Part shown: positions 1 through 13,398 of the stretch, one piece after another | Position numbering within the stretch: the stretch's first letter is position 1 | Layout: each line of letters begins with the position of its first letter | NCBI RefSeq assembly: GCF_003334385.1 | Contig: NZ_QOWN01000001.1 | DNA from: Escherichia coli | Lineage (GTDB): Bacteria > Pseudomonadota > Gammaproteobacteria > Enterobacterales > Enterobacteriaceae | Length of the DNA stretch: 64,000 nucleotides | Strand: one strand, 5' to 3' | Position numbers and translations under genes: made by a program | The notes under the pieces: model-generated | What the model saw: only the letters and a program-made list of their open reading frames with translations | Told to the model about the DNA's origin: nothing | The model's database searches: none

Positions 1-1188
<1,188 letters not shown>

Positions 1189-2382: not shown

Positions 2383-3810
2383 ATGAGCGATAAAAAGAAG
2401 CGCAGTATGGCGGGTTTGCCGTGGATCGCGGCGATGGCCTTCTTCATGCAGGCACTTGATGCCACTATTCTTAATACCGCCTTACCCGCAATCGCTCATA
2501 GCCTTAATCGTTCTCCTCTCGCGATGCAATCAGCCATCATCAGTTATACGCTGACGGTGGCGATGCTTATTCCGGTAAGCGGATGGCTAGCCGATCGCTT
2601 CGGTACGCGTCGCATTTTTACCCTTGCCGTGAGTCTGTTCACATTGGGTTCTCTGGCCTGCGCACTTTCTAATTCGCTACCACAGCTGGTTGTCTTCCGG
2701 GTTATTCAGGGGATAGGCGGCGCAATGATGATGCCTGTTGCTCGGCTGGCCTTACTGCGCGCTTATCCTCGTAATGAACTTCTTCCAGTATTGAATTTTG
2801 TCGCCATGCCGGGTCTGGTGGGGCCAATTTTAGGCCCCGTTCTTGGCGGCGTGCTGGTCACCTGGGCAACCTGGCACTGGATATTTTTAATCAATATCCC
2901 CATAGGTATTGCGGGCCTTCTTTACGCGCGCAAACATATGCCCAATTTCACCACCGCACGACGCAGATTCGATATCACTGGCTTTTTGCTGTTTGGCCTC
3001 AGCCTTGTTCTCTTCTCAAGCGGAATAGAGCTATTCGGGGAAAAGATTGTCGCCAGCTGGATTGCCTTGACGGTAATTGTCACCAGCATCGGGTTACTGC
3101 TTCTCTATATTCTCCATGCACGACGCACGCCAAACCCATTAATTTCATTAGATTTATTTAAAACCCGCACTTTCTCGATCGGTATCGTAGGCAATATTGC
3201 AACCCGTCTGGGGACCGGCTGTGTACCGTTCCTTATGCCATTGATGTTACAGGTAGGATTTGGTTATCAGGCGTTTATTGCTGGCTGTATGATGGCACCG
3301 ACAGCGTTAGGTTCCATTATTGCAAAATCGATGGTTACCCAAGTCTTACGTCGTCTGGGCTATCGCCATACGTTAGTGGGGATCACGGTGATTATTGGGC
3401 TAATGATCGCTCAGTTCTCTTTGCAATCACCAGCAATGGCTATATGGATGCTGATCTTGCCGTTGTTTATATTAGGGATGGCTATGTCGACGCAGTTTAC
3501 CGCGATGAATACCATCACACTTGCCGATCTGACCGATGACAATGCCAGCAGCGGTAACAGTGTTCTGGCGGTCACGCAGCAACTGTCGATTAGTTTAGGC
3601 GTTGCTGTAAGTGCGGCCGTCCTTCGCGTTTATGAAGGAATGGAAGGCACAACGACTGTCGAACAATTCCACTATACGTTTATCACAATGGGCATTATTA
3701 CTGTTGCTTCAGCAGCAATGTTCATGCTTCTGAAAACAACCGATGGTAATAATTTGATCAAAAGACAGCGTAAATCTAAGCCGAACCGCGTTCCATCAGA
3801 ATCGGAGTAA
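2383..3810 (+). CDS. hsrA: MFS (DHA2-family) efflux transporter
   Basis: 475-aa polytopic membrane ORF with MFS signature stretches; good RBS spacing after yieP. Confidence 0.9.
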
Positions 3811-4768
3811 GTTGTAATCGTTGTTGCTGAAGGGTCGGCTGGGTTATCCGATGGATGAGTACATCAATCGCCAGCTCCCCCAGTTCATCTTTCGGTTGGT
3901 GGATAGTGGTTAATGGTGGCGTCATAAAGCTTGCCAGTTCGATATCGTCATAGCCAATCACCGCGATATCCTGCGGAACCTGTAACTCTGCCTGATATAA
4001 CGCCTGGTAAACGCCAACAGCCATAGCGTCATTTCCGGTAAAGACGGCCTGAGGACGCAGCGGATGTGATAGCAGTTGGCGCATAGCGTCAAACCCGCCG
4101 TTAAATTCAAAATCACCAGTGACTTCATAGCCATCAGGAATGTTGAGACCCGCACGTTTCATCGCCGCCCGATAACCTTCCAACCGCAGGCGCGCCGGAG
4201 TTTTATCCAGCGGGCCGGTAATACAGGCGATACGGGTATGACCTTTATCGATCAGATATTGCGTTGCTAAGTCTCCGCCCAGCAACGAGTTATCCTGAAT
4301 AAGATCGCTGTCGCCATCGAACGGAGCCCAGTCCATCATCACAGTAGGCACTGTCGGATAACGTTGCATGATTTCACGCGAAGGTTGATGCGTTTCGGTG
4401 CACAGTAACAGCAAGCCATCAACGCGTTTTTGCATCAGCGTTTCCAGATTGCGATTCATCCGCTGTTCATCGCCTTCGGTATTGCAAAGGACGAGACTAT
4501 AACCGCGTTCGAAGCAGCTGCGTTCAACGCCACGCACCAGTTCTGAATAGAAAGGATTGGTACTGGCAGTGATCAACATGCCAATGGTATGTGTTTGATT
4601 GAGTTTGAGGCTACGCGCCAGAGCTGATGGCGCGTAATTGAGTTCTTTAATCGCCGCTTCAACTTTGGCGGTAATCGCTTCACTGACGAAGCGATCTTTA
4701 TTGATAACGTGAGAAACTGTTGAGGTAGAAACGCCCGCCAGGCGGGCAACATCTTTCATTGTAGCCAA
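3776..4768 (-). CDS. rbsR: ribose operon repressor (LacI family)
   Basis: 330 aa; N-terminal LacI-type HTH ([23 protein letters not shown]) and periplasmic-binding-protein-like core. The 3' end overlaps the convergent hsrA by 35 bp. Confidence 0.95.
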
Positions 4769-5701: not shown

Positions 5702-5826
5702 ATTCGGGATGTCCATAAAATGCGCCACCGTGTTAGGGTGGCGCGTGCCCTGCTTTTCTTTATATTACACGTTCATCTGTCGATGACGTATTTATGTCAC
5801 CATCAGGTCATACAACCTGATTAAAA

Positions 5827-11901: not shown

Positions 11902-13398
11902 ATGGCTCACCCTCATTTATTAGCGGAAAGAATTTCCCGCCTGAGCAGTTCGTTGGAAAAGGGGCTTTATGAACGTAGCCACGCCATCCGCTTGTGTTTA
12001 TTAGCGGCATTAAGTGGTGAAAGTGTGTTCCTCCTTGGCCCGCCAGGTATTGCCAAAAGTTTGATCGCCCGGCGCTTAAAATTCGCCTTTCAGAATGCCC
12101 GCGCGTTTGAATATCTGATGACCCGCTTCTCCACGCCGGAAGAAGTTTTTGGTCCCCTTTCTATTCAGGCGCTAAAAGATGAAGGGCGCTATGAACGTTT
12201 AACCAGCGGTTACCTGCCGGAAGCAGAAATTGTCTTTCTGGATGAGATCTGGAAAGCGGGCCCGGCAATTCTTAATACCTTGCTCACCGCCATTAACGAG
12301 CGCCAGTTCCGCAACGGTGCACACGTAGAAAAAATCCCGATGCGCCTGCTGGTGGCGGCCTCCAACGAGCTGCCGGAAGCAGACAGCAGTCTGGAAGCGT
12401 TATATGACCGCATGCTGATTCGTCTGTGGTTAGATAAAGTGCAGGATAAAGCGAATTTCCGCTCCATGCTGACCAGTCAACAGGATGAAAACGACAATCC
12501 GGTTCCTGATGCCTTGCAGGTCACAGATGAAGAATATGAACGCTGGCAGAAAGAGATTGGTGAAATTACGCTGCCCGATCATGTATTTGAGCTGATTTTT
12601 ATGCTGCGCCAGCAACTGGATAAATTACCGGATGCGCCTTATGTCTCGGATCGTCGCTGGAAAAAAGCGATCCGATTATTACAGGCCAGCGCCTTTTTTA
12701 GCGGTCGCAGTGCTGTTGCCCCGGTAGATCTCATTTTGCTGAAAGATTGCCTGTGGTATGACGCGCAAAGCCTGAATTTGATACAACAACAAATTGATGT
12801 ATTGATGACCGGTCACGCCTGGCAACAGCAAGGGATGTTGACTCGCCTTGGCGCGATTGTGCAACGTCACCTGCAACTCCAGCAGCAACAAAGCGATAAA
12901 ACAGCCTTAACGGTAATTCGTCTGGGCGGCATTTTCAGCCGTCGTCAGCAGTATCAACTTCCTGTTAACGTTACTGCTTCCACTCTGACTCTACTGCTGC
13001 AAAAACCGTTAAAACTGCATGATATGGAAGTGGTTCATATCTCCTTTGAGCGTAGCGCGCTGGAACAGTGGCTGAGCAAAGGTGGTGAAATTCGCGGTAA
13101 ACTGAACGGTATCGGCTTTGCCCAGAAACTGAATCTGGAAGTTGATAGCGCCCAACATCTTGTCGTTCGCGATGTAAGTTTACAAGGCAGTACGCTGGCA
13201 CTTCCCGGTTCATCGGCTGAAGGTCTGCCTGGTGAAATAAAACAACAACTGGAAGAGCTTGAAAGCGACTGGCGCAAGCAACACGCTTTATTCAGCGAAC
13301 AGCAAAAATGTCTGTTTATCCCTGGCGACTGGTTAGGTCGCATTGAAGCCAGCCTACAGGATGTCGGTGCACAGATTCGCCAGGCACAACAATGCTAA
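11902..13398 (+). CDS. ravA: MoxR-type AAA+ ATPase RavA
   Basis: 498 aa from MAHPHLL; Walker A GPPGIAKS and Walker B FLDEIWK. Overlaps viaA by 7 nt. Confidence 0.93.

Follow-up and report, generated by a model that had tools for sequence, protein, structure and literature searches.

The window, by which we mean the whole stretch of 64,000 nucleotides analysed here, covers an origin-proximal region of the Escherichia coli K-12 chromosome and reads as the reverse complement relative to the standard map. RefSeq gives the gene order in this region as yieP, hsrA, rbsR-rbsK-rbsB-rbsC-rbsA-rbsD, kup, ravA-viaA, asnA, asnC and mioC. Two pairs of genes in this order face each other tail to tail, hsrA with rbsR and viaA with asnA, and the features found at their junctions are collected in Table 1. 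A probe of 1 kb over the hsrA/rbsR junction matches E. coli K-12 MG1655 with 100% identity. Among 5426 complete E. coli genomes, the hsrA/rbsR junction is present in 5417 and the viaA/asnA junction in 5421; both junctions are core genome.

Table 1. Genes, RNA features and read-through intervals at the two convergent junctions. Positions are those of the window.
Feature	Position	Strand	Source
hsrA (yieO; RefSeq 'mdtD') CDS, 475 aa	2383..3810	+	ORF list, MG1655 annotation 100% match
22-nt dsRNA duplex, 2-nt overhangs, row 'hsrA rbsR'	3775..3798 (+ strand 3777-3798, - strand 3775-3796)		PMC7373196 Table S3
Tail-to-tail CDS overlap, 35 bp	3776..3810		raw sequence
rbsR CDS, 330 aa	3776..4768	-	ORF list, RefSeq annotation
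hsrA read-through, antisense to rbsR, up to BCM-sensitive (Rho) region	3811..4072	+	PMC7815308 supplementary file 2
viaA CDS, 483 aa	13392..14843	+	ORF list, sequence, RefSeq
asnA read-through beyond the Term-seq end, antisense to viaA, as far as Rho region	14555..14751	-	PMC7815308 supplementary file 2
asnA 3' UTR by Term-seq, fully antisense to viaA C-terminal codons	14752..14847	-	PMC7815308 supplementary file 1
Hairpin 2 (CCCGGUAUCA..GCGC / GCGC.UGAUGCCGGG), then UUUGCCGU	14760..14807	- (asnA-sense)	fold
Hairpin 1, GC-rich stem-loop (GCCGCC.GC / GC.GGCGGC)	14815..14838		inverted repeat, fold
Spacer ATTA, 4 nt, between viaA and asnA stops	14844..14847		raw sequence
viaA read-through, antisense to asnA; Rho region 14979, p19 duplex 14978-15001	14844..15001	+	PMC7815308, PMC7373196
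asnA CDS, 330 aa	14848..15840	-	ORF list, sequence, RefSeq

The original prediction placed a tail-to-tail overlap of 35 bp between hsrA (+) and rbsR (-) and set the stops of viaA (+) and asnA (-) 4 bp apart. The list of open reading frames, the raw sequence and RefSeq confirm both arrangements, and the RefSeq ends in MG1655 agree in detail (mdtD, which is hsrA, overlaps rbsR by 35 nt; the gap between viaA and asnA is 4 nt). The stop codon of hsrA is TAA at 3808-3810 (+), and that of rbsR is TAG, read from CTA at 3776-3778 (-). On the + strand the overlap holds the final 10 codons and the stop of hsrA; on the - strand it holds the stop and the final ~10.7 codons of rbsR. At the second junction viaA ends with TAA at 14841-14843 (+), and asnA with TAA read from TTA at 14848-14850 (-).

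Both pairs are thus convergent coding sequences that overlap or abut, a kind of arrangement of which one survey of E. coli K-12 counted 75 overlapping cases (PMC4161906). Four convergent junctions were read in the annotation covering the window up to dnaA; the two besides these, yieK/cbrC and adeP/yieF, have spacers of 61 nt and 53 nt. Tail-to-tail junctions like hsrA/rbsR and viaA/asnA are ordinary and represent no statistical oddity. A search of Rfam gave no match above the gathering score near either junction, the only matches in the window being to 16S rRNA, STnc410 and AsdA.

A kup-anchored scan supplied 80 loci, one per Enterobacteriaceae species, most of which include both junctions. 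The stop-to-stop spacing of hsrA and rbsR was measurable in 69 species and was -4 in 30 of them, -35 in 25, +2 in seven, -9 in three, -53 in three and -24 in one. For viaA and asnA (67 measurable species) the spacing ranged from -4 to +17 and was most often 0; one value of 752 nt was left out as a script artefact, the first pass having given -4 at that locus. A real spacer was found at neither junction in any of these measurable Enterobacteriaceae species, and the tight abutment is therefore old.

The comparison also suggests how the longer overlap came about. In the junction alignment, species with a spacing of -4 have a shared stop tetranucleotide of the TTAA/CTAA type, and their HsrA ends in ...ERHKR. 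Species with a spacing of -35, which belong to Escherichia, Salmonella, Citrobacter, Enterobacter and Leclercia, are 1 nt shorter immediately before the shared stop, and the old stop is out of frame. Their HsrA is 10 aa longer, an extension missing in the -4 species, and the C-terminus of RbsR is unchanged. In Lelliottia and Pseudenterobacter the rbsR stop is lost as well, giving an overlap of 53 nt. The -4 state is more widely distributed than the -35 state, and on the basis of this taxonomic distribution, rather than a rooted tree, we infer that it is ancestral. As judged from the alignment, the 35-bp overlap most likely arose by a frame change of 1 nt before the hsrA stop in a shared-stop (4-base) junction, and it is most likely a tolerated by-product and not a device. 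The change resembles the tail-to-tail overlaps formed by stop displacement (PMC4161906), in that the ancestral hsrA stop would have been lost by the frame change, with run-on to the next stop; at 35 bp it is rather longer than the 4-nt shared stop, which is the commonest form and the one seen in 30 of the 69 related species.

The original prediction further held that the convergent transcripts must overlap. For hsrA/rbsR an overlap of the mRNAs is logically necessary because a full-length mRNA of either gene includes a stop codon situated within its partner, and for the same reason it is impossible that both transcripts end before reaching the partner. Published data bear the claim out at both junctions, through an excludon catalogue, Rho regions in the partner genes and duplexes captured by p19. 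In the first of these sources, ExcludonFinder (Sanmartin et al., NAR 2025, PMC12288877), 'rbsR-hsrA' and 'asnA-viaA' appear in Table 1 among 165 convergent excludons, which are defined by RNA-seq transcript overlap in at least 50% of 58 MG1655 samples.

The positions of the transcript ends were taken from the tables of PMC7815308. Genome coordinates (g) were converted to window coordinates (w) as w = 3942995 - g, using the flanking sequences in the Term-seq table of that study. BCM-sensitive Rho regions are listed for three of the four directions (hsrA, viaA and asnA), 136-293 nt into the partner gene. The region for hsrA read-through is at g3938923(-), window 4072, 262 nt past the stop (Rho score 2.78, p 7.6e-6); that for viaA read-through is at g3928016(-), window 14979, 136 nt past the stop (score 3.91, p 4.1e-8); and that for asnA read-through is at g3928440(+), window 14555, 293 nt past the stop (score 4.92, p 5.5e-11). 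For rbsR read-through into hsrA, the tables of PMC7815308 hold no 3' end or Rho region. Published 3'-end mapping, which had been proposed as the check on the prediction, places Rho regions and one Term-seq end inside the partner genes for hsrA, viaA and asnA. The reads behind the Rho scores are few, from tens to about 170 per 800-nt window, which suggests that encounters between polymerases are rare here under the conditions tested. The same study records very strong termination between rbsB and rbsK (3' end at 5717 of the window), as well as a 3' end within the early part of rbsR, at 4670 (PMC7815308); both further reduce the traffic toward hsrA.

Upstream of a Rho-dependent terminator a C-rich, G-poor rut region is expected, and in this respect the read-through transcripts vary. 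The C/G ratio over 300 nt is 1.26 for viaA read-through and 1.22 for asnA read-through (~90th percentile of the window), and it is 0.91 for hsrA and 1.07 for rbsR. Within the asnA read-through the C/G ratio peaks locally at 2.08, some 175-250 nt beyond the stop of asnA.

Paired RNA has also been recovered from both junctions. Huang et al. 2020 (PMC7373196 Table S3) list perfectly paired 22-nt RNase III products, with 2-nt overhangs, captured in vivo by p19. We located the 'hsrA rbsR' duplex (2.72 and 1.85 RPM) in the window by its + strand sequence, and nearly all of it falls within the 35-bp overlap. A duplex within asnA at window 14978-15001 (1.49 and 4.46 RPM; PMC7373196 Table S3) coincides with the Rho region for viaA read-through. 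In vivo transcript overlap and RNase III-processed dsRNA, two features of a convergent excludon, are thus both found at both junctions, the dsRNA in low abundance. The two pairs, the overlap of their transcripts, the Rho ends and the RNase III duplexes are already known, in the sense that all stand in published genome-wide tables.

Less can be said for the premise that neither junction leaves room for terminators. It presumes that terminators must be intergenic; the asnA end lies 8 nt after a hairpin embedded in viaA, and the other ends are set by Rho inside the partner gene, for rbsR presumably. Scans for consensus terminators at both junctions found none at the boundaries and only chance-level matches within genes, and hairpin 2 was not reported by them. 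When stretches of 141 nt around hsrA/rbsR were folded, no significant structure was found on either strand (z -1.4 and -0.6). An embedded terminator at hsrA/rbsR was considered and dropped, the fold not being significant and neither 3' end showing synonymous constraint.

The asnA 3' end maps to g3928243(+), window 14752, which is 96 nt past the stop; it is designated 'antisense viaA' and is supported by 1557 reads (PMC7815308). It was curated in one of three Term-seq growth conditions, corresponding to the LB OD 2.0 sheet as judged by file position. Two hairpins form when the 99 nt that run from the asnA stop codon to this end are folded (-42.5 kcal/mol, z -3.98, with 0 of 200 shuffles as stable). 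Hairpin 1 lies within the last 9 codons of viaA, 2 nt upstream of the viaA stop and 9 nt downstream of that of asnA, and both transcripts can form it (-16.2 kcal/mol and z -2.6 on the + strand; -16.6 kcal/mol and z -3.6 on the - strand). Its pairing is preserved in 90% of cells over 56 sequences, with two pairs altered on both sides and a variable loop, and its stem encodes the arginine-rich ViaA tail RLLRRWRR.

Hairpin 2, encoded within viaA codons ~457-472, is a stable GC-rich hairpin (-22.2 kcal/mol, z -3.87, 0 of 200 shuffles) whose pairing holds in 95.5% of cells (56 sequences). Essentially no compensatory changes were found among the 56 sequences because the sequence is almost invariant. 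The Term-seq end at 14752 lies 8 nt after the stem (G14760), within the 7-9 nt expected of an intrinsic terminator. No U-rich tract directly follows the stem, the tail UUUGCCGU having only 3 consecutive U. The asnA end at hairpin 2 could reflect either intrinsic-like (weak) termination or exonuclease trimming of a Rho-terminated RNA back to the hairpin. Trimming to hairpin 2 would yield a 3' end similar to that left by intrinsic termination. Applied to the alignment of the viaA tail, RNAalifold returned a weak consensus (-7.8 kcal/mol) that differs from hairpins 1 and 2. A tally of G-U wobbles favoured the asnA-sense strand at 4 pair positions and the viaA-sense strand at 3, the largest count coming from a single fixed U-G pair.

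Synonymous sites were compared in codon alignments of 14 regional genes, with windows of 15 codons (n=4590) and synonymous diversity normalised for each amino acid. Codons 457-477 are the most constrained stretch in viaA (z -3.84) and the third deepest distinct trough among the 4590 windows, and hairpin 2 falls at the same place as this trough. In these alignments synonymous constraint is absent from the 3' ends of hsrA, rbsR and asnA, a result that speaks against conserved signals embedded there and agrees with diffuse termination of the Rho type. Other deep troughs lie at the 3' ends of genes that are followed by a same-strand neighbour (rbsD/rbsA, rbsC/rbsB, rbsA/rbsC and the asnC 3' end), for which embedded start signals of the next gene would be a natural putative cause.

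If hairpin 2 served asnA, its pairing might be expected to follow the adjacency of the two genes, and a small comparison of six genera gives a mixed picture. Yersinia similis has a viaA/asnA spacer of 98 nt whose asnA strand carries a textbook terminator, and there the lower stem of hairpin 2 retains only 5 of 10 pairs, the amino acids being unchanged. In Serratia and Photorhabdus viaA and asnA abut (+6), and hairpin 2 pairs at 10 of 10 and 9 of 10 positions, respectively. In Rahnella and Pantoea asnA is not beside viaA, yet hairpin 2 pairs at 7 of 10, and given these two genera the constraint may not stem from asnA alone. From these comparisons it is plausible that the hairpin 2 constraint exists for the asnA 3' end. 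A stronger reading is that the twin-hairpin asnA 3' UTR (14752-14847) is a selected RNA element in the last ~30 viaA codons, which would set the asnA end, stabilise the mRNA and constrain synonymous sites of viaA across the Enterobacteriaceae, the pair being functionally coupled; we consider this unlikely. If it were true, a terminator or stabiliser of asnA would be 'hosted' in the coding sequence of the convergent viaA, and viaA/asnA would be a true excludon that links RavA-ViaA with asparagine synthesis.

Ju et al. in 2019 and Wang et al. in a 2022 preprint reportedly found bidirectional terminators by SEnd-seq at many convergent gene pairs of E. coli. In a terminator of this collision type at viaA/asnA, hairpin 1 would position head-on collisions, and both transcripts would end within a few nt of it, with no need of Rho or a U-tract. 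The published model demands a stem-loop between convergent genes without features of an intrinsic terminator, and viaA/asnA has just such a structure, GC-rich, lacking a U-tract and folding on both strands right at the boundary, with the conserved stem and variable loop described above. However, no curated 3' end lies at hairpin 1 on either strand in the 3 Term-seq conditions of the one data set consulted (PMC7815308), where Rho-independent ends of both transcripts would have to flank the stem-loop; the asnA end has been mapped downstream of hairpin 2, and read-through farther on is bicyclomycin-sensitive in both directions. Protein constraint on the ViaA tail RLLRRWRR may, moreover, explain part of the conservation of hairpin 1. 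A collision terminator at this junction is accordingly improbable.

The original prediction had suggested that the overlapping transcripts may give antisense interference, and in its fullest form this would make both pairs functional excludons. The overlaps would then have been selected, and strong transcription of one gene would repress its partner by polymerase collision and by RNase III cleavage of the duplex. Both pairs do have the RNA-seq overlap by which ExcludonFinder defines an excludon, and resemble the other convergent excludons of MG1655 in their convergent orientation, their very short or negative intergenic distance and their 3' ends within the neighbour's transcription unit; but that catalogue rests on RNA-seq coverage only, and an excludon in the functional sense implies mutually exclusive expression (PMC12288877). 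RNase III-type duplexes occur at both junctions, but at 1.5-4.5 RPM they are comparable to most of those within nearby genes that have no convergent partner (2-3 RPM in rbsB, rbsC and ravA, as much as 11 RPM in yieP; PMC7373196). The p19 study also found dsRNA at 3' overlaps to be about 38-fold poorer than at 5' overlaps (PMC7373196). In published data an rnc (RNase III) mutant has about 4-fold less AsnA protein rather than more, a change that gives no support to simple repression by way of RNase III.

In favour of a regulatory role, the abutment is conserved throughout the family, and that of viaA/asnA extends to Serratia and Photorhabdus, but conservation of gene order would by itself keep the junctions abutted, and in Yersinia, Rahnella and Pantoea a viaA/asnA spacer is present or asnA has been lost from this position. 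We found no anticorrelated expression of either pair in the literature. For the INTERFERENCE question, neither the sequence comparison nor the published tables revealed a regulatory effect for either pair. Another E. coli convergent pair in the ExcludonFinder catalogue, mscL-arfA, makes a useful contrast: crosstalk through antisense RNA is described for it in PMC10070815, reportedly with experimental evidence of a regulatory consequence of a kind that hsrA/rbsR and viaA/asnA do not have. Antisense interference as a regulatory effect is thus unsupported at these junctions, and we think it quite unlikely that the pairs are functional excludons. Were they so, expression of the ribose regulon would be coupled with that of the HsrA transporter, and RavA-ViaA with asparagine synthesis.

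Mis-annotation sometimes accounts for long overlaps, as the title of PMC2478687 indicates, but the idea that one member of each pair really ends earlier, making the overlap or abutment unreal, is hardly credible and was rejected, since at each of these codons a long conserved ORF meets its first in-frame stop, RefSeq gives identical ends, the -35 state recurs in 25 other species, and nothing was found in its favour.

Termination by Rho offers a close precedent for the read-through. Peters et al. in 2012 are said to have described Rho-dependent termination of antisense read-through. In the account of Adams et al. 2021 (PMC7815308), untranslated antisense RNA is ended more than 50 nt downstream, as in three of the four directions here. 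The junctions differ from this scheme in that the rbsR direction is without a listed region, and that asnA has an extra, hairpin-associated end upstream of its Rho region.

We consider it very probable that both pairs are ancestral and ordinary junctions, at which passive read-through is ended by Rho in the partner gene, with a hairpin-defined asnA end in viaA in addition, and that the 35-bp overlap is a by-product. Because there is no intergenic spacer, each mRNA necessarily runs on, as untranslated antisense RNA, into the 3' portion of the gene that faces it. This read-through RNA would end mainly by Rho, about 130-300 nt in, as the published regions indicate for hsrA, viaA and asnA and as we presume for rbsR. 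Transcripts of asnA have an additional, hairpin-defined end 96 nt past the stop, inside the last viaA codons. Where sense and antisense RNAs coexist they pair, and RNase III cuts the duplex, as is seen at low level. At hsrA/rbsR, a frame change of 1 nt in the ancestral shared-stop junction would have given hsrA 10 more codons, running across the antisense of the rbsR C-terminus.

The significance of these observations is small and mostly one of bookkeeping, since the coordinates are those of the standard annotation of the best-studied bacterial genome. The junctions nevertheless provide a clean illustration that, without intergenic room, 3'-end signals can still sit inside the facing gene, and hsrA/rbsR offers an example of a 1-nt frame change that most likely converted a shared-stop junction into a coding overlap of 35 bp.

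The deepest trough of synonymous-site variation in viaA lies near its 3' end and ranks as the third deepest distinct trough among the 14 neighbouring genes compared. On the asnA-sense strand, opposite viaA, a stable hairpin coincides with this trough, as does the Term-seq 3' end mapped at 14752 (PMC7815308). The coding sequence of viaA may host a terminator or stabiliser for asnA here. The strongest amino-acid-normalised synonymous-site constraint in the same 14 genes was found at the 3' end of asnC. At its other end, viaA has a 7-nt overlap with ravA (13392-13398), the viaA ATG preceding the ravA stop, which is a typical same-strand junction.

Outside the Enterobacteriaceae the viaA/asnA junction is organised differently, as seen in loci from Yersinia, Rahnella and Pantoea. 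The Yersinia similis locus (L083) has a spacer that includes a canonical terminator, while asnA is absent from the position adjoining viaA in the loci of Rahnella (L087) and Pantoea (L089). The hsrA/rbsR junction also varies: in the loci from Lelliottia, Pseudenterobacter and an Enterobacter MAG (L024, L040 and L049), the rbsR stop codon is likewise lost, RbsR is 6 residues longer, and the coding overlap with hsrA is enlarged to 53 nt.

Locations of the features discussed, and of other annotated features (window coordinates unless a locus is named)
Feature	Position	Strand	Details
Synonymous-site conservation trough, viaA	14760-14822		codons ~457-477; synonymous-site comparison
Synonymous-site constraint, asnC 3' end	~16352-16396		codons 121-135; upstream of mioC
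Hairpin and Term-seq 3' end, early rbsR	4670-4695	-	codons ~25-33
Term-seq 3' end between rbsB and rbsK	~5717	-	~84,600 reads, LB OD 0.4
viaA/asnA spacer, Yersinia similis	L083 5468-5565		98 nt
Canonical terminator in that spacer	L083 5541->5509		15-bp stem and U-tract
16S rRNA gene, 3'-truncated	1-1188	-	
STnc410, sRNA	27554-27711	-	Rfam gathering-level match
AsdA, antisense RNA of dnaA mRNA	59776-59856	-	Rfam gathering-level match

A very strong 3' end lies inside the rbs operon, between rbsB and rbsK, at an intrinsic terminator (GCGCCACC..GGUGGCGC followed by AUUUU). Because of this strong terminator, rbsDACB should be transcribed far more than rbsK-rbsR. A hairpin in early rbsR is perfectly palindromic (ATCGCTTCACTGACGAAGCGAT); a Term-seq 3' end maps 4 nt beyond it, and a Rho termination region is located at 4608; these signals may reflect premature termination inside rbsR.

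RNase III duplexes captured by p19 (PMC7373196 Table S3, positions in U00096.2 coordinates) are also contained in rbsB, rbsC, ravA, mnmG and yieP. Most of them have 1-5 RPM on each strand, with values of up to 11 RPM in yieP. Their presence within these five genes argues that low-level antisense transcription is not confined to the convergent junctions; it appears to be pervasive across the region.
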